Origin: a virus
Taxonomy: Duplodnaviria; Heunggongvirae; Uroviricota; Caudoviricetes
Reading direction: 5' to 3' (one strand)
Virus record (IMG/VR): IMGVR_UViG_2675903352_000013
Coordinates: 1 to 25,016 of that record
Length of the DNA: 25,016 nt
Made by a program: the position numbers and the translations under genes. Numbering within the stretch: position 1 is the first letter of the stretch; each line of letters starts with the position of its first letter. The notes beneath the pieces are model-generated. The model ran no database searches, was not told the origin of the DNA, and worked only from the letters and a program-made list of their open reading frames with translations. Below are positions 13,647 through 25,016 of the stretch, one piece after another.

Positions 13647-14393
13647 TCACTTCGTGATTCCTGGCTGGACGACATTCGGGCGCCAGCTTTCCCAGTTAAA
13701 ATTCACCCAGCGTCCGCCGTTCATGGTCATGCGATCCATAATCCGCTCACCGAGCAATGTTTTCATGGCCTCATAGTTCAGGTTTGTCAGCATTCCCACG
13801 CTACGCATCGACGCTGTCCGTCGATCAATAATCTGGTGCAGTACCACCTGCTCGTTTTTCGTCTCACGCTGAATGCCAATTTCATCAAGAACCAGCAGAT
13901 CCACTTCGCACAGTTCCCGCAAAAATTTTTCGCCTGACTGCCCGTCGTCATAGCTGGCGTGCAGGGCACTCATAACATCAGCCACAGTAACCACTATCAC
14001 TGTCTGGCCGTCTTTCAGCAGGCGATTTCCGATAGCCGCCGCCAGATGGTTTTTCCCGGTACCAGGTTTTCCACTGAACGCGAAATTTGTACACCCGGTC
14101 ATCAGTTCATCGGCGATGGATTTTGCCTGGCTTAACGCGTATCGCTGACCGTCGTTCTGCACCTGGTAATTCGCAAACGAGCATTTGCGGTGCAACGGCT
14201 GGATGCCAGAGCGATTCAGGATTTTTTCAACCCGCAACTGACGATTCAGGCGGTTGATCTCCTCGCAACGTTTCTGGCCTTCAGCAAGTTGCCACTCGCG
14301 CCACTCCGCAACCGTTCTGAATGGGGCGGTTACATGTGGTGGGGTCAGTCTGCGGATACGTTCCAAGACGCCTCCTGTCGCAATATTTTTCAT
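13647..14393 (-). CDS. ydaV: DnaC-like helicase loader / replication protein (YdaV-like)
   Basis: 248-aa ORF with ATG at 14393..14391; Walker [16 protein letters not shown] and IstB/DnaC-like organisation; length matches Rac YdaV as recalled. Confidence 0.8.
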
Positions 14394-14399
14394 GGTTCG

Positions 14400-15266
14400 T
14401 TACCCCCTGAAGCCTGGCGGGATCGCACTGTCCGGCAACGAGACGGTGTTAACCTGCCGAGGCAACGTCTCCGGTCGAACGCCTTTCGGCGCGAACAAGC
14501 CCTGGTATTCGTTGGCGATGCTGTGTCGAATCACCTGCTCAGGGGTAAAACCCTGCTGGCGGAATTTTTCCAGTTCCCGTATCGCCCCGTTAGCGCCCTG
14601 CTCCGTTCGAATCGGTTTTCGCAATGCCTGCCTGAACCGGACCCACTCATGCCAGAGTGTTTCCGGCAACCAATCGGGCAACTCAATAGCCTCCGGCTCG
14701 AATTTTTTAGATGCTCGTTTTTGGCGAGGGGGATTTAGGGGGAGATCAGTATTTATATCTTCCTCTTCCTCTTCCTCTGGTAACGCTTTTTGATCCGTTT
14801 GTGTAACGCTGGCAGCGTTACCTTTTCGTTTCAGTTCGCGTATTTTTGTAACCCTCTCGTTTGTAATCGCCCGTTTTTTAGAGCTTTTTCCGTTATGACG
14901 TTCAAAGTTAGGTAGAGAAAGCCCACCGTTATTTTCGACCAGCCATCCAACCTGAATTAACGCATCAGCAAAACCAGCCATAAAAGTGATGCGATCTATT
15001 GCACTTTTTGTAACGCTGCGAGCGTTACACTCTGCGTTACCGTCTATCATTTGTTGATCCGCCCATGCCCAGAAGCGAATGACTTTCCCTAATGCGGCAT
15101 CTGGATCAATATTCAGAATCTCAGCAAGCCTGAATATTTCCGGCTTATCCGGCGTAATAACCTCGAGCTTTATCCAGTTTGAAGCCATATTGTTTTCACC
15201 TTGTAACGCTGTAAGCGTTACATTTAACTGATACCGAACAAAACAGTCCGGCACGATTAATTTCAA
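14400..15266 (-). CDS. ydaU: Replication initiation protein (YdaU-like); start uncertain
   Basis: 288-aa track ORF starting at TTG 15266, abutting the ydaT stop. Alternative ATG at 15188..15186 with SD AAGGTG gives 262 aa. Acidic Glu-run linker; contains three palindromic repeats. Confidence 0.6.
   Translation of the reverse strand: MKLIVPDCFVRYQLNVTLTALQGENNMASNWIKLEVITPDKPEIFRLAEILNIDPDAALGKVIRFWAWADQQMIDGNAECNARSVTKSAIDRITFMAGFADALIQVGWLVENNGGLSLPNFERHNGKSSKKRAITNERVTKIRELKRKGNAASVTQTDQKALPEEEEEEDINTDLPLNPPRQKRASKKFEPEAIELPDWLPETLWHEWVRFRQALRKPIRTEQGANGAIRELEKFRQQGFTPEQVIRHSIANEYQGLFAPKGVRPETLPRQVNTVSLPDSAIPPGFRG
14803..14821. repeat. 19-bp perfect palindrome GTAACGCT-N3-AGCGTTAC, copy 1 (candidate iteron/origin site)
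   Basis: gtaacgct ggc agcgttac; an additional half-site GTAACGCT at 14780..14787. Confidence 0.7.
15010..15028. repeat. 19-bp perfect palindrome GTAACGCT-N3-AGCGTTAC, copy 2
   Basis: gtaacgct gcg agcgttac; extra half-site-like tgcgttac at 15033..15040. Confidence 0.7.
15203..15221. repeat. 19-bp perfect palindrome GTAACGCT-N3-AGCGTTAC, copy 3
   Basis: gtaacgct gta agcgttac; lies between the TTG and ATG candidate starts of ydaU. Confidence 0.7.
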
Positions 15267-15689
15267 TCAATGCACTACGACAGAGTCGCCGGGCGACCCG
15301 CCGCCGCTGAAATGTGCTTTACGATAAACGGCCTGGACTGCATCATCATGCGCATCAATTGCCGTACTCAACGCTTCCTGCGCCGCCAGTAATGCACGGC
15401 GTTCCAGGGTATCGAAGATGCAGAGTCGGTGACGCAGCTCGCGCGGAAGAATTGCCAGAACCGCAGGGATCAGTTTCTGAATTTTTTCCCTTTGGGCTTT
15501 CGTTTCACCTTTCAACCAACGGTGATAGATATTCTGCTGATTGTTCCAGTCCTTGCCAGGCACCAGGGGCAATTCGCCGCCCCCCTGGCGCAGATATTCT
15601 TCAGTAATTGCATTGGCAACCCATGCCTGCCCTTTTTCAGATGCCATGGCCAACAACACTGATTCGATATGCTCATGCCTGATTTTCAT
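15267..15689 (-). CDS. ydaT: YdaT-like protein (putative toxin of the Rac YdaS/YdaT pair)
   Basis: 140-aa ORF, ATG at 15689..15687 overlapping the ydaS stop (ATGA). Sequence MKIRHEHIESVL...QAWVANAITEEYLRQGGGELPLVPGKDWNNQQNIYHRWLKGETK closely matches Rac YdaT as recalled. Confidence 0.75.
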   Translation of the reverse strand: MKIRHEHIESVLLAMASEKGQAWVANAITEEYLRQGGGELPLVPGKDWNNQQNIYHRWLKGETKAQREKIQKLIPAVLAILPRELRHRLCIFDTLERRALLAAQEALSTAIDAHDDAVQAVYRKAHFSGGGSPGDSVVVH

Positions 15690-15928
15690 GAATCAACCGC
15701 TCCTATGCTGTTTTCGCTATGCTTACCGTCTGGGGGGAATACATCGTCAAGTCCACAATGAGCGCCAAGCCGATTAAGGGTAGAAACAATTTTTCTGCAC
15801 TCCTCTAGTCCAGGGGTACGAAAATTTGCTTCGTAATTTGCCAGTCGGCTTTGTATCCACCCTAACTGAACAGCGAGTTGTCTTTGAGACAGACCAAGCT
15901 GTTTTCGATATGTTGAAATTTTGTTCAT
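15686..15928 (-). CDS. ydaS: Cro/YdaS-like HTH (XRE-family) regulator
   Basis: 80-aa ORF, ATG at 15928..15926 with SD GGAGG at a 7-nt spacer; HTH segment LGLSQRQLAVQLGWIQSRLANYE; divergent from the repressor gene. Confidence 0.65.
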   Translation of the reverse strand: MNKISTYRKQLGLSQRQLAVQLGWIQSRLANYEANFRTPGLEECRKIVSTLNRLGAHCGLDDVFPPDGKHSENSIGAVDS

Positions 15929-16024
15929 TGAAAACCTCCGATGACAATTTTAAACACACATTGTGTTATACGATCAAGCTGTTTTGTGTTTTATATAAAT
16001 CACGAATCGTGATACAAGGATGCA
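15929..16024. promoter_or_regulatory. Divergent promoter/operator region between the cro-like and repressor genes
   Basis: Contains ACACA-T-TGTGT inverted repeat (15956..15966), a TTTTGTGTTTT half-site, and a 15-bp perfect palindrome ATCACGAATCGTGAT at about 15999..16013. Confidence 0.5.
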
Positions 16025-16444
16025 ATGGAAAAAGAAAACGAAAAAATTGCCGCTAGTAGGCTCAATGACAAAATTGCAATGCGTCTTAAAGAGCGCAGGC
16101 AGAAGCTCGGTTTATCTCAAGGAAAACTTGCTGAAATCTGCGGATGGACGCAATCGCGTATAGGTAACTATGAGGCGGGCAGCAGAAATGTTGGAGTGCA
16201 TGATGCTGTCGTATTGGGAAAGGCACTTGGCATATCTCCTCCTGAGCTCCTCTTTGGAGAACAGGAATCTTCTGAATTGTGGTTAAATGAATCCCAACGA
16301 AAACTTCTTGAGTTGTTTAACCAGCTACCGGGCTCAGAACAACAACGAATGATTGAGCTATTTGAAGTCCGGCTAAAAGAAATCGATGAGTATGTAGAAA
16401 AATATTTGAGAGGCAGGCTTAAAGATAATCCCCCACCGGAGTAA
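16025..16444 (+). CDS. Prophage repressor, XRE-family HTH (RacR-like position)
   Basis: 139-aa ORF, ATG at 16025 with SD AAGGA; HTH LGLSQGKLAEICGWTQSRIGNYE; no peptidase S24 domain. Confidence 0.7.
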   Translation: MEKENEKIAASRLNDKIAMRLKERRQKLGLSQGKLAEICGWTQSRIGNYEAGSRNVGVHDAVVLGKALGISPPELLFGEQESSELWLNESQRKLLELFNQLPGSEQQRMIELFEVRLKEIDEYVEKYLRGRLKDNPPPE

Positions 16445-16473
16445 TGATCTTGATATCACAGTAATATGCCAAT

Positions 16474-16497
16474 CAGCCCGCTATCAGCGGGCTTTTT
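16474..16497 (+). terminator. Rho-independent terminator downstream of the repressor gene
   Basis: AGCCCGCT-atc-AGCGGGCT followed by TTTTTTGT. Confidence 0.7.
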
Positions 16498-16526
16498 TGT
16501 ACCATCATCATATGACATCCACCACA

Positions 16527-16570
16527 AAACACATTTCGTGTTGACACACGAAAACACATTGTGTTTAATA
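16527..16570 (+). promoter_or_regulatory. Candidate promoter with operator half-sites upstream of ydaF/ydaG
   Basis: AACACA-T-TGTGTT inverted repeat at 16553..16565 and AACAC-N5-GTGTT at about 16528..16543; TTGACA at 16542..16547 with TTTAAT about 17 nt downstream. Confidence 0.4.
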
Positions 16571-16745
16571 AGCATATCCAAACAACGCCCCACCAGAGAA
16601 CGGCAGGACAATACCTTGAGTTATCCAGCCACTGAACAGGGCTAAGTAGCCAGCCTGAGGCATACGAACATGACGGCTGTTGTTGATTGATACAAAGCGC
16701 AGTAGATAAAACGTTCCGCTACCCGGCGTTAATGGGAGAGATAAG

Positions 16746-16880
16746 ATGGTGCATTACGAAGTAGTTCAGTATTTGATGGATTGTTGCGGTATCACTTACA
16801 GCCAGGCTGTGCAGGCTTTACGTAGCAACGACTGGGATCTCTGGCAGGCAGAAGCCTCTATCCGCAACAACAAGATGTGA
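16746..16880 (+). CDS. ydaF: YdaF-like small protein
   Basis: 44-aa ORF below the track cutoff: MVHYEVVQYLMDCCGITYSQAVQALRSNDWDLWQAEASIRNNKM. Confidence 0.55.
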   Translation: MVHYEVVQYLMDCCGITYSQAVQALRSNDWDLWQAEASIRNNKM

Positions 16881-16891
16881 GGGTTTCCAAA

Positions 16892-17047
16892 ATGCAAAAA
16901 ATCGACCTCGGCAACAACGAATCCCTGGTGTGCGGCGTGTTACCCAACCAGGACGGTATGTTCACCACGATGACGTATACCAAAAGCAAAACGTTTAAAA
17001 CCGAAGCTGGTGCCAGCCGATGGTTGGAGAAGCACACAGTAAGCTAA
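16892..17047 (+). CDS. ydaG: YdaG-like small protein
   Basis: 51-aa ORF: MQKIDLGNNESLVCGVLPNQDGMFTTMTYTKSKTFKTEAGASRWLEKHTVS. Confidence 0.55.
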   Translation: MQKIDLGNNESLVCGVLPNQDGMFTTMTYTKSKTFKTEAGASRWLEKHTVS

Positions 17048-17493
17048 CGATTAAAACCTCTACTCCTGCTGTTCCAGAATAACTTCATAAAATGGGAGTA
17101 TTTTTCGGTGACGAGATAATAAGAACAGTTTGCGCTATCACTCTGATGTTGAATGATGCCCTTCCGTTCTAATTTTTTCATAACCGGGTTACGGCAAGGA
17201 GAAATGATAATAAGATTTCCTGTTTTAAGGAAATCTTTAAATACAGCGATTTCTTTCTCAGATAAACGAAGCAATACTCGTTGCTCTGGTAGTAATGAAT
17301 AATGCTTTTGAATATGCGCTCGCAATCTTGAGAAGGAAATGGCGACCACAAAAGAAAAGGCAAAAACGATAATCTGAAACAACCAAGGTATTTCAGTATA
17401 AGTATTGAATGCGACAACAAACTCTTTCGGCATCAACCAGAGAGTGAGGCCAAAAATAATAATCGTGTACATAAGTCTTTCGATGTGGCTCAT
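17044..17493 (-). CDS. sieB: Superinfection exclusion protein B (SieB-like)
   Basis: Track ORF starts at TTG 17499; first in-frame ATG at 17493..17491. Sequence SHIERLMYTIIIFGLTLWLMPKEF...FQIIVFAFSFVVAISFSRL with two transmembrane segments matches SieB as recalled. Confidence 0.7.
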   Translation of the reverse strand: MSHIERLMYTIIIFGLTLWLMPKEFVVAFNTYTEIPWLFQIIVFAFSFVVAISFSRLRAHIQKHYSLLPEQRVLLRLSEKEIAVFKDFLKTGNLIIISPCRNPVMKKLERKGIIQHQSDSANCSYYLVTEKYSHFMKLFWNSRSRGFNR

Positions 17494-17972
17494 TAGCAAA
17501 AAGTTTCAACAATGGAGTAAATACATCCAACATATCAATAACTCTCGACTGTAAGGGTATTGAAATGTTAACACAAGCTCTCGCTGTAGGGGTATAGCAG
17601 AGACCACCGAAGCCCGGAGGTGGTGAAATAAAACCGGGCACAACACGAAGGCGCATTTCCGGTATCCATAAAGAGTCGGTCTTGTCTGTTAAATTTAAAT
17701 GGTGGGAGTGCGCCTCCGGTTGTAAATAACGACATTGCTGTGTGTAGTCCTGGCGGCATCAGTTTTTTCTTGAAGTTTGGCTGATGTCCGCCCTTTTTAA
17801 AGTGAATTTTGTGATGCGGTGAATGCGGCTAAGCGCACGCGGAACAGTTAAAGCTAAAAACAGTGTTATGGGTGGATTCTCTGTATCCGGCGTTAATTGT
17901 TAACTGGTTAACGTCACCTGGAGGCACCAGGCACCGCATCGACAAAATTCATTTGTAAAAATGGAGATAATT

Positions 17973-23780: not shown

Positions 23781-25016
23781 ATGTCTAAATTACCAACAGG
23801 TGTCGAGATTCGAGGTAAATACATTCGCATCTGGTTCATGTTTCGAGGGAAACGATGTCGGGAAACATTGAAAGGCTGGGAGGTTACTAACAGTAACATT
23901 AAAAAGGCCGGGAGTTTAAGAGCATTGATAGTTCACGAAATAAATTCCGGCGAGTTCGAGTATTTAAGACGTTTTCCCCAGTCCAACACCGGGGCAAAAA
24001 TGGTGACAACGAGGGTCATAAAAACATTCGGAGAGCTTTGTGATATCTGGACAAAAATTAAAGAGACAGAGTTAACAACAAACACAATGAAGAAAACAAA
24101 ATCACAATTAAAAACCCTCAGGATAATCATTTGCGAGAGTACCCCAATATCACATATTCGTTATAGCGATATCTTAAGCTACCGAAATGAACTGCTGCAT
24201 GGAGAAACGCTTTACCAGGATAATCCAAGAGTCAACAAAAAAGGAAGAACCGTGCGCACAGTTGATAACTATATCGCCCTGCTATGTTCGTTGTTACGTT
24301 TTGCGTATCAGTCGGGATTTATATCAACCAAACCATTTGAAGGAGTAAAAAAATTACAGCGAAACAGAATAAAGCCTGATCCGTTATCTAAAACAGAATT
24401 CAATGCATTAATGGAAAGAGAAAAAGGACAGAGTCAAAACTTGTGGAAATTTGCTGTTTACTCCGGGCTTCGTCACGGGGAACTGGCAGCCCTGGCGTGG
24501 GAGGATGTGGATTTCGAGAAGGGAATTGTGAATGTCAGAAGAAACCTGACGATACTTGATATGTTCGGTCCTCCAAAAACAAATGCCGGGATCCGAACGG
24601 TAACATTACTGCAGCCTGCTCTTGAAGCACTGAAGGAGCAATACAAACTGACCGGACATTATCGCAAAAGCGAAATCACCTTTTATCATCGGGAGTATGG
24701 CAGAACCGAAAAGCAAAAACTGCATTTTGTTTTCATGCCCAGGATGTGTAACGGAAAACAAAAACCTTATTACTCGGTAAGCAGTTTGGGGGCGAGATGG
24801 AATGCAGCAGTAAAACGTGCTGGTATTCGCCGCCGTAATCCGTACCATACGCGACATACTTTTGCCTGTTGGCTGTTGACGGCAGGAGCGAACCCGGCAT
24901 TTATAGCCAGCCAGATGGGGCATGAAACTGCGCAGATGGTGTATGAAATTTACGGTATGTGGATTGATGACATGAACGACGAACAGGTAGCCATGTTGAA
25001 TGCGCGGTTATCGTAG
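23781..25016 (+). CDS. intR: Tyrosine-recombinase integrase (IntR-like), complete, ending at the window edge
   Basis: 411-aa ORF with ATG at 23781 and TAG at 25014..25016. N-terminus MSKLPTGVEIRGKYIRIWFMFRGKRCRETLKGW and C-terminal catalytic region HTRHTFACWLLTAGANPAFIASQMGHE match Rac IntR as recalled. Confidence 0.9.
   Translation: MSKLPTGVEIRGKYIRIWFMFRGKRCRETLKGWEVTNSNIKKAGSLRALIVHEINSGEFEYLRRFPQSNTGAKMVTTRVIKTFGELCDIWTKIKETELTTNTMKKTKSQLKTLRIIICESTPISHIRYSDILSYRNELLHGETLYQDNPRVNKKGRTVRTVDNYIALLCSLLRFAYQSGFISTKPFEGVKKLQRNRIKPDPLSKTEFNALMEREKGQSQNLWKFAVYSGLRHGELAALAWEDVDFEKGIVNVRRNLTILDMFGPPKTNAGIRTVTLLQPALEALKEQYKLTGHYRKSEITFYHREYGRTEKQKLHFVFMPRMCNGKQKPYYSVSSLGARWNAAVKRAGIRRRNPYHTRHTFACWLLTAGANPAFIASQMGHETAQMVYEIYGMWIDDMNDEQVAMLNARLS

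Follow-up and report, generated by a model that had tools for sequence, protein, structure and literature searches.

Close described counterparts of the switch considered here belong to the prophage CP-933P of Escherichia coli O157:H7 and to the Rac prophage of E. coli K-12. In CP-933P, whose switch promoters are PR933P, PRM933P and PL933P, the proteins PaaR2 and YdaS footprint a 97-bp spacer, and the leftward promoter (PL), which carries operators like those of the right operator region (OR), is repressed by both proteins (PMC8630535). In K-12 Rac, three RacR operators are found at OR (PMC9638921), and lowering RacR raises the expression of ydaG, ydaF, kilR and other genes 40- to 70-fold (PMC11014345). 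Leaderless repressor mRNA has been reported for both PaaR2 (PMC8630535) and RacR (PMC9638921). Here we describe inverted repeats with AACAC/GTGTT half-sites that stand on both sides of a repressor gene in a 25,016-nt stretch of viral DNA (Caudoviricetes; IMG/VR record IMGVR_UViG_2675903352_000013, positions 1 to 25,016), the whole of which we call the window. Judged by its genes, the region is the immunity region of a Rac/CP-933P-like lambdoid prophage, and the dyads are very probably the operators of a lambda-style immunity switch. Such a switch is an ordinary member of a well-known architecture, of the Rac, CP-933P and DicA-like kind, and what is new is its immunity specificity.

The repressor gene and a divergent cro-like gene are separated by a spacer of 96 bp, between the end of the cro-like gene at 15928 and the start of the repressor gene at 16025. 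The operator unit is a 15-bp dyad, A(A/T)CAC-N5-GTG(T/A)T, with three sites at OR and two at the left operator region (OL). Its CAC and GTG cores are spaced by one helical turn, which fits a dimer of a helix-turn-helix (HTH) protein. Counted from the cro-like gene, the first site (OR1-like, 15953-15967, centre 15960, -65 from the repressor ATG) is the exact dyad AACAC-ACATT-GTGTT, which would lie over the spacer and -10 element of the rightward promoter (PR); here AACACACATTGTGTT at 15953-15967 contains ACACATTGTGT at 15956-15966. The second site (OR2-like, 15976-15990, centre 15983, -42), AAGCT-GTTTT-GTGTT, overlaps the putative PR -35 element and is weak, since the right half-site alone is intact (GTGTT, 15986-15990). 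The third site (OR3-like, 15999-16013, centre 16006, -19), ATCAC-GAATC-GTGAT, is the perfect palindrome ATCACGAATCGTGAT and overlaps the -10 element of the putative repressor promoter (PRM). Beyond the repressor terminator, the exact dyad AACAC-ATTTC-GTGTT (AACACATTTCGTGTT; OL2-like, 16528-16542, centre 16535) overlaps the putative PL -35 element with its right half-site. It is followed by AAAAC-ACATT-GTGTT (OL1-like, 16551-16565, centre 16558), a site with one mismatch that would lie over the PL spacer and -10 element. The core of this last site is the same as that of OR1, with AACACATTGTGTT at 16553-16565, and the site is in register with AACAC-GAATA-GAGTT and similar sites of relatives. The centre-to-centre step is 23 bp throughout both clusters. 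A third OL operator was not found 23 bp to either side of the pair, where the sequences centred at 16512 and 16581 misfit.

These motifs had been listed in a first-pass annotation of the window, and all of them, including the perfect 15-bp palindrome, are present where it had placed them. It had also noted that palindromes after the repressor terminator bracket a TTGACA, and the dyads at 16528 and 16551 indeed do so around 16541-16546. Its statement that sites lie on both sides of the repressor gene holds as well, although their count had to be corrected: OR has three, including a weak one, and OL has two.

The sites are too frequent to be due to chance, and they are strongly concentrated in the two spacers. 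When we searched for exact AWCAC-N5-GTGWT, the window contained three matches against 0.10 expected, and none of 100 shuffled sequences reached three; all three (15953, 15999 and 16528) lie inside the two spacers, and a one-mismatch copy stands at 16551. Exact ACACANTGTGT was found twice in the window, against 0.05 expected. When the window was scored with a weight matrix built from operator sites of other genera only, the site at 16528 ranked first (23.5 bits) and that at 15953 second (20.9 bits), whereas the maximum in shuffled sequence had a 95th percentile of 16.1. The sites at 16551, 15976 and 15999 ranked 3, 5 and 8, respectively. With a score of 9.7 at rank 5 in 25 kb, OR2 is the weakest of the five assignments. 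As a separate observation, a 14-nt direct repeat, GA(C/T)CAAGCTGTTTT, is present at 15892-15905, at the beginning of the cro-like coding sequence, and at 15972-15985, across the PR -35 element and OR2, with 13 of 14 positions matching; it may reflect chance or an extra weak site.

We collected related loci by a genome scan, exact-protein look-ups, annotated phages and a viral-contig scan. Repressor homologues are present throughout Enterobacterales, and the GWxQSRIGNYE segment, which corresponds to the recognition helix, is highly conserved among them. The same-helix set comprises 15 distinct loci from at least six genera whose repressors carry the helix GW[AT]QSR[IV]GNYE; these repressors, from Salmonella, Citrobacter, Serratia, Klebsiella, Enterobacter and Dryocola, are 57-85% identical to that of the window. 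In all of them (15/15), the centre of an exact AACAC-N5-GTGTT lies at -65/-66 relative to the repressor ATG, and that of a variant, AACAC-N5-GTGGT or ATCAC-N5-GTGAT, at -19. There is usually a site with one or two mismatches at -42/-43, and an exact site follows 91-125 nt past the repressor stop codon, often with a second one 23 bp beyond. The N5 spacers of these relatives vary (ACAAT, AAAAT, GCGTC, ATAAC, GTTAT and ATGAT).

This variation bears on the repeat unit itself, which had been given as ACACA-T-TGTGT. The half-sites are real, but the unit is a 5-N5-5 dyad, since relatives vary the middle bases, and the 6-1-6 appearance arises because OR1 and OL1 have the same spacer, ACATT, in this lineage. 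It could be argued that the true element is the 6-1-6 palindrome AACACA-T-TGTGTT, and that the N5 dyads and ATCACGAATCGTGAT have nothing to do with it or are sites of a different protein, as ACACATTGTGT occurs exactly twice in the window, once per spacer, against 0.05 expected. However, same-helix relatives keep AACAC and GTGTT ten bases apart while the middle changes, and the close relative L129, with AAAAC-AAATT-GTGTT, breaks the 6-1-6 symmetry and keeps the 5-N5-5 register. In addition, the sites at 15999 and 16528 and the uniform 23-bp step are explained by the 5-N5-5 dyad alone, and we consider a 6-1-6 element very improbable.

The half-sites follow the recognition helix of the repressor. 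Repressors with the helix GWSG(A/S)SR(V/I)ANYE are accompanied by TTCAC/CTCAC-N5-GTGA(A/G), and those with the helix GWATASRVGNYE by GACAC-N5-GTGTC, in both cases at the same positions as the sites of the window. Citrobacter phage Chris1, which has a short repressor, shows the layout of the window. The functional coliphage mEp213 (JQ182733) carries three A(A/T)CAC-N5-GTG(T/A)(T/A) dyads at OR and another three at OL/PL, and its cI has at the N-terminus a domain for DNA binding that is 58% identical over 69 amino acids to that of the window repressor, with the helix GWASQSRIGNYE. The mEp213 cI differs from the window repressor in being a 213-aa LexA-type (S24) protein, and mEp213 further differs in having a classical nutL and N after PL and a lambda-type cII rather than ydaT. 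No description of the mEp213 operators was found in our literature search. We observed directly the sites with their statistics and conservation, and the way in which they follow the recognition helix. A different kind of locus was seen in Salmonella (L025, 2380-2500), where the cro gene and ribosome-binding region match those of the AACAC-type Salmonella locus L016. There, the cro recognition helix is the same as that of the window, but the operators, TTCAC/CTCAC-N5-GTGAG, and the repressor, with the helix GWSGSSRIANYE, are of another type. The locus looks like a mosaic, with the recombination joint apparently within the spacer.

The proteins of the window would fit a common set of sites. The recognition helix is GWTQSRIGNYE in the repressor and GWIQSRLANYE in the cro-like protein, and the two HTH regions are 45% identical over 42 amino acids. 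Since helix 3 is nearly identical (WTQSRIGNYE and WIQSRLANYE), the repressor and the cro-like protein would use the same sites. The repressor and Cro of phage 434 likewise have a similar helix 3.

The dyads might instead be bound solely by the cro-like YdaS or by the CII-like YdaT, with the 139-aa protein regulating something else. K-12 YdaT binds the racR-ydaS spacer (PMC11879457), and YdaT-box-like sequences, counted as TGATT-N6-AATCA with at most one mismatch, are more frequent in the window than expected (7 against 1.57; at 1999, 13241, 15254, 15680, 15987, 19896 and 23497), one of them lying in the spacer at 15987-16002. The YdaT box and AACAC-N5-GTGTT are, however, different motifs, and the half-sites track the repressor helix across loci. 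Moreover, helix 3 is common to the repressor and Cro, and the dyads are kept in mEp213, with which the DNA-binding domain alone is shared and which has a lambda-type cII, not ydaT. We therefore give little credence to a role of the dyads confined to YdaS or YdaT. Apart from the dyads, a YdaT box, cTGATT-TTCATG-AATCAA, is present at 15678-15695, and its spacer contains the start codon of ydaT (minus strand); boxes placed in this way have been described for K-12 Rac and CP-933P (PMC11879457, PMC9986795).

We infer the promoters of the switch from their elements and from their position relative to the operators. The putative PR (15947-15977, minus strand) consists of a -35 element TTGATC (15977-15972), 17 bp and the -10 region TTTAAAAT (15954-15947), and a GGAGG ribosome-binding site of the cro-like gene follows at 15939-15935. 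In relatives, PR has the design TTGAC(A/T/C)-17-TTTAAT/TTTAGA, with the spacer filled by an operator. The putative PL (16541-16571, plus strand) consists of the -35 element TTGACA (16541-16546), 17 bp and the -10 element TTTAAT (16564-16569), for which TAATAA (16566-16571) is an alternative, and this design is kept in L001-L003, L014, L016, L018-L021 and L027. Across relatives, PR and PL share one order, namely a -35 element, 4-6 nt, an operator and a -10 element, with a second operator overlapping the -35 element. The putative PRM (16010-16018, plus strand) is an extended -10 element, TG-a-TACAAG, whose TG comes from the right half of OR3. The arrangement TG-n-TAnnnn, 6-7 nt and ATG is kept in every relative inspected and in mEp213, with the fuller consensus TG-n-TA(A/C/T/G)(A/G)A(A/T/G/C) in relatives. 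Since the PRM -10 element of the window stands only 6 nt before the repressor ATG, the repressor mRNA is predicted to be leaderless or nearly leaderless. The cI mRNA of phage lambda is leaderless as well. If PRM starts at the ATG, the operators are centred at -65, -42 and -19, just as OR1, OR2 and OR3 of lambda are placed with respect to their PRM.

It is highly unlikely that the downstream palindromes are a terminator structure or chance A+T-rich symmetry, with ydaG and ydaF expressed by read-through or from another promoter: a scan did find a terminator-like hairpin there (minus strand, 16553-16534) and a simple promoter scan did not call PL, but relatives retain the two dyads and the intervening TTGAC(A/T) and not the hairpin TCGTGT/ACACGA, in more than 100 related loci with many operator types a -35/-10 pair with the locus's own dyads on its flanks is present here, and the K-12 and CP-933P data favour a repressor-controlled leftward promoter (PMC11014345, PMC8630535). 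The hairpin itself was rejected as a terminator, being an unconserved by-product of neighbouring half-sites.

If the dyads are the operators of a lambda-style switch, it would work as follows. Repressor on OR1 and OR2 would shut off PR, and repressor on OL1 and OL2 would shut off PL; occupancy of OR2 may aid PRM, and occupancy of OR3 would limit it. The cro-like protein, using the same sites, would shut off PRM and later PR and PL. Transcription from PL would run parallel to the repressor gene and enter ydaG, ydaF and the recE/recT region. Which protein occupies which site and in what order, as well as cooperativity and the route of induction, we likewise infer from these comparisons. The first-pass proposal of an OR/OL-like arrangement, with a repressor-controlled promoter directed toward ydaF and ydaG, is supported by the position of the sites, the helix tracking, mEp213, K-12 Rac and the published relatives.

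Comparison with phage lambda shows the same divergent repressor and cro genes and the same three dyads about 23 bp apart in the spacer. As in lambda, the cro-proximal operator would lie over PR and the middle one close to -42 of a PRM predicted to be leaderless, with the third over that PRM, and further operators lie over a putative leftward promoter of the same orientation past the terminator of the repressor operon. The differences are the operator sequence, the two OL sites instead of three, and a repressor of 139 amino acids without an S24 self-cleavage domain. In addition, a YdaT-family protein takes the CII role, and PL is followed by a conserved structured leader, with no recognisable N or nutL. 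With CP-933P, the window shares the prophage family, the gene order (ydaT, ydaS, spacer, repressor and PL), a spacer of nearly the same length (97 and 96 bp, respectively) and a leaderless repressor mRNA, predicted in the window. Unlike in the window, the operator consensus of CP-933P is GTTTAGTAA, and a paaA2-parE2 toxin-antitoxin pair follows PaaR2.

K-12 Rac has the same flanks, with ydaV, ydaU, ydaT and ydaS on one side and ydaG, ydaF and sieB on the other, the same YdaT box over the ydaT start codon and the same conserved leader before ydaG. Its repressor is different, since RacR has 158 amino acids and is not homologous to that of the window (BLASTP of the window repressor against K-12 RacR, E = 2.0). 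The RacR operators have the form TAGGC-N3-GCCTA, and RacR-type operators (TAGGCNNNGCCTA) have no match in the window, even with one mismatch allowed. The lack of RacR homology and of RacR operators indicates a different immunity cassette in the same backbone. K-12 Rac also resembles the window in having a two-operator promoter after the repressor gene. In MG1655 (L026, reverse strand, about 1419595-1419660), the RacR-type operators TAGGCATAGCCTA and TAGGCATTACCTA follow racR, and these exact or near-exact copies flank a TTGACA and overlap a TATAGT, which is a PL/OL arrangement. A keyword search of the RacR literature found no description of it.

The repressor resembles DicA of Qin and the GfoR-type repressors of Gifsy prophages, which have about 130-140 amino acids, an N-terminal HTH and a C-terminal domain of the LLELFxxLPxxEQ type (bioRxiv 10.1101/2023.04.14.536235). 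As in these proteins, there is no Ala-Gly cleavage site or S24 domain, and the partner gene is cro-like and divergent; Pfam finds HTH families only in the 139-aa repressor. A PL-like promoter, dicBp in the DicA system, drives a DUF1391 gene there too. Against the NCBIfam DicA model NF007257, the repressor scored 57.2 bits (E = 1.4e-15), below the cut-off of 101 bits, and residues 15-133 aligned to model positions 4-131 of 135. By this alignment, the repressor is a full-length DicA homologue outside the curated DicA subfamily. Its recognition helix is unlike that of DicA, so the operators differ. For DicA and the Gifsy proteins, it is an antirepressor, for example Rem or GfoA, that inactivates the repressor (bioRxiv 10.1101/2023.04.14.536235), and since the window repressor lacks an S24 domain, induction would, by analogy, probably occur via an antirepressor and not by RecA-stimulated cleavage.

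Here, we need to consider several points that weigh against the operator interpretation. First, the -10 elements are imperfect (TTTAAA in PR and TTTAAT in PL), and a simple consensus promoter scan of the window calls none of PR, PRM and PL; PL is missed because its -10 element has no A at position 2. Second, of OR2 the window has just a half-site, and there are two sites at OL instead of three. Third, the YdaT-box-like sequence TGTTTT-ATATAA-ATCA (15987-16002, one mismatch) overlaps OR2 and OR3, so that a third protein may also act in the spacer; through it the CII-like protein may modulate repressor expression, as K-12 YdaT does from the racR-ydaS spacer. Fourth, the Salmonella locus L025 combines an identical cro helix with TTCAC-type operators and a different repressor. 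Cro may therefore recognise chiefly the CAC/GTG core that both operator types share, unless L025 is a recent mosaic. Finally, for the window and for this immunity type, the promoters and the binding of the two proteins are predictions from sequence. The A+T-rich stretch of the box at 15987-16002 is, as an observation of its own, restricted to the lineage of the window.

The comparison of loci also revealed a conserved non-coding leader between PL and ydaG, present in the window as a variant that we call V1 (16577-16745, plus strand). The stretch of about 170 nt that separates PL from ydaG shows conservation of its nucleotide sequence in K-12 Rac, Salmonella, Citrobacter, Klebsiella, Kosakonia, Enterobacter, Sodalis and others, and this conservation is independent of the immunity type. 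When we scanned viral contigs for the most conserved leader block, at least 120 loci were found, and the unique leader variants, including those of earlier loci, number at least 118 (L001-L151, with K-12 L026 included). Nearly all of these leaders stand directly after a -35/-10 pair that is flanked by the dyads of that locus itself. The dyads upstream are of the RacR type, a type resembling that of CP-933P (PaaR2), the HK022 type, the AACAC type and many more. Coding sequence was rejected as an explanation of the leader, as the reading frame shifts between L001 and L020.

A second variant, V2, provided evidence of RNA structure. Its core of about 70 nt is closed by the 6-bp stem P1; inside are a small hairpin and the 5-bp stem P3, whose loop, GGCAUAYGAA, is invariant. 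Covariation is strong in two helices of this core. When 31 diverse V2 sequences were compared with controls in which the pairing partners were slid, 92.9% of the core cells were paired against at most 41.5% in the controls. Double-change cells numbered 90 against 6-17, and the covariation score was 0.475 against at most 0.092. Compensatory changes occur in five of the six P1 pairs, and the G-U pairs fit the PL-sense strand. In several loci of the subset V2b, a hairpin and a canonical boxA (CGCTCTTTAACAA) follow within about 30 nt after the core, a nut-like context.

The V1 leader of the window shares sequence blocks with V2 but carries extra helices. The block common to both is the V1 core AAGTAGCCAGCCTGAGGCATACGAA, that is AAGTAGCC(A)GCCNGAGGCATAYGAA, at 16644-16668 (plus strand), and a second V1 module, GCGCAGTAG...GTTCCGC with a hairpin, lies at about 16696-16730 (plus strand). 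The V2 covariance model matched neither the window nor other V1 loci under default filters; with the filters off it gave a partial match at 16644-16675 in the window (E = 0.17). The match being only partial, V1 is linked to V2 by sequence blocks and position and not by model score. Thermodynamic folding gave no signal for the window leader (z = -0.02) and z = -1.78 for the K-12 leader, and RNAalifold yielded a weak consensus from a mixed V1/V2 alignment. Some V1 stems covary, by eye, among the window, K-12, Salmonella and L042 types. A search of Rfam 15 found only a sub-threshold Trp-leader match on the terminator within 15200-17600 of the window and no match for the V2 leader, and sequence words of the leader retrieved only unrelated primers from the searched literature.

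In phage HK022, the put sites direct protein-independent antitermination via the beta-prime zinc-binding domain of RNA polymerase (PMC9378689). Both HK022 putL (PMC9378689) and the leader are RNA elements about 70 nt long, beginning no more than about 20 nt into the PL transcript, and in relatives with HK022-type operators, a leader of the window type is found exactly at the putL position of HK022. The structures differ, because the closing stem of the leader encloses two hairpins while putL consists of two side-by-side stem-loops (PMC9378689), and a leader-profile search with nhmmer for homology to put found nothing in the HK022 early region. The position at PL and the association with boxA make elongation or antitermination the leading idea for the leader. 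By analogy, a cis-acting element of this kind in place of nutL or putL is possible, although we regard it as somewhat doubtful. With such an element, release of the repressor at OL would start transcription and would also license read-through of the long recE/recT/int operon, and the immunity cassette, comprising cro, OR, the repressor and OL/PL, would be a swappable module upstream of a common leader.

The genes around the switch agree with a Rac/CP-933P-like prophage. On the minus strand lie the DnaC-like ydaV (13647-14393), ydaU (14400-15266), the YdaT/CII-like gene (15267-15689; Pfam PF06254, PHROG 163 'CII-like') and the cro-like gene, a ydaS homologue encoding 80 amino acids with an HTH_3 domain (15686-15928; Pfam HTH_3, E = 6.7e-10). 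On the plus strand, the HTH_3 repressor gene (16025-16444; open reading frame and Pfam), which encodes 139 amino acids with a DicA-like C-terminal domain, is followed by an intrinsic terminator of its transcript (16475-16499). The stem of this terminator (16475-16493) has 8 bp, six of them G-C pairs, and precedes TTTTTT; a counterpart with a hairpin and a T-run is present in relatives as well. The first genes downstream of the putative PL are the ydaG homologue (16746-16880, plus strand; PHROG 14709, E = 2e-37) and ydaF/DUF1391 (probable start 16892, end 17047, plus strand; PHROG 751, E = 1e-31; Pfam DUF1391, E = 1e-25). Farther along the plus strand are recE- and recT-like genes, with sieB on the opposite strand, and the open reading frame at 23781-25016 (plus strand), which is a putative integrase gene. 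The closest match among complete E. coli genomes has 96.9% identity, and the same genes are annotated in those records.

Two further observations concern neighbouring regions. Three exact 17-bp palindromes, TAACGCT-N3-AGCGTTA, occur in the window against 0.01 expected, at 14804-14820, 15011-15027 and 15204-15220, inside and just upstream of ydaU and about 200 bp apart. Two of the three extend to 21 bp (TGTAACGCT-N3-AGCGTTACA), and L080, L116 and L134 each have two copies about 400 bp apart; these palindromes may be initiator or origin sites of the replication module. In an Enterobacter locus (L024, 2925-4082), a gene for a 385-aa protein with an HsdR-N domain lies between the repressor gene and the PL/leader region, and looks like a moron at the boundary of the immunity region.

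For one immunity type, widespread in Rac-like prophages of Escherichia, Salmonella, Citrobacter, Klebsiella, Serratia and Enterobacter, these results define the operator as AACAC-N5-GTGTT and give the predicted layout of the promoters. Within a single family of repressors, the flanks of the half-sites vary together with the recognition helix, and the results tie the operator specificity to the DNA-binding domain of the cI of phage mEp213. This should aid the prediction of superinfection immunity groups and of silent prophage genes (the kil, recET and sieB region), while the general understanding of such switches is left unchanged. The leader would matter more than the operators if its proposed role is upheld, as a conserved, covarying RNA in the position of lambda nutL and HK022 putL, and it is the item worth following up. 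If that role is true, the leader could explain how the long early-left operon is transcribed in Rac-type prophages that lack N.

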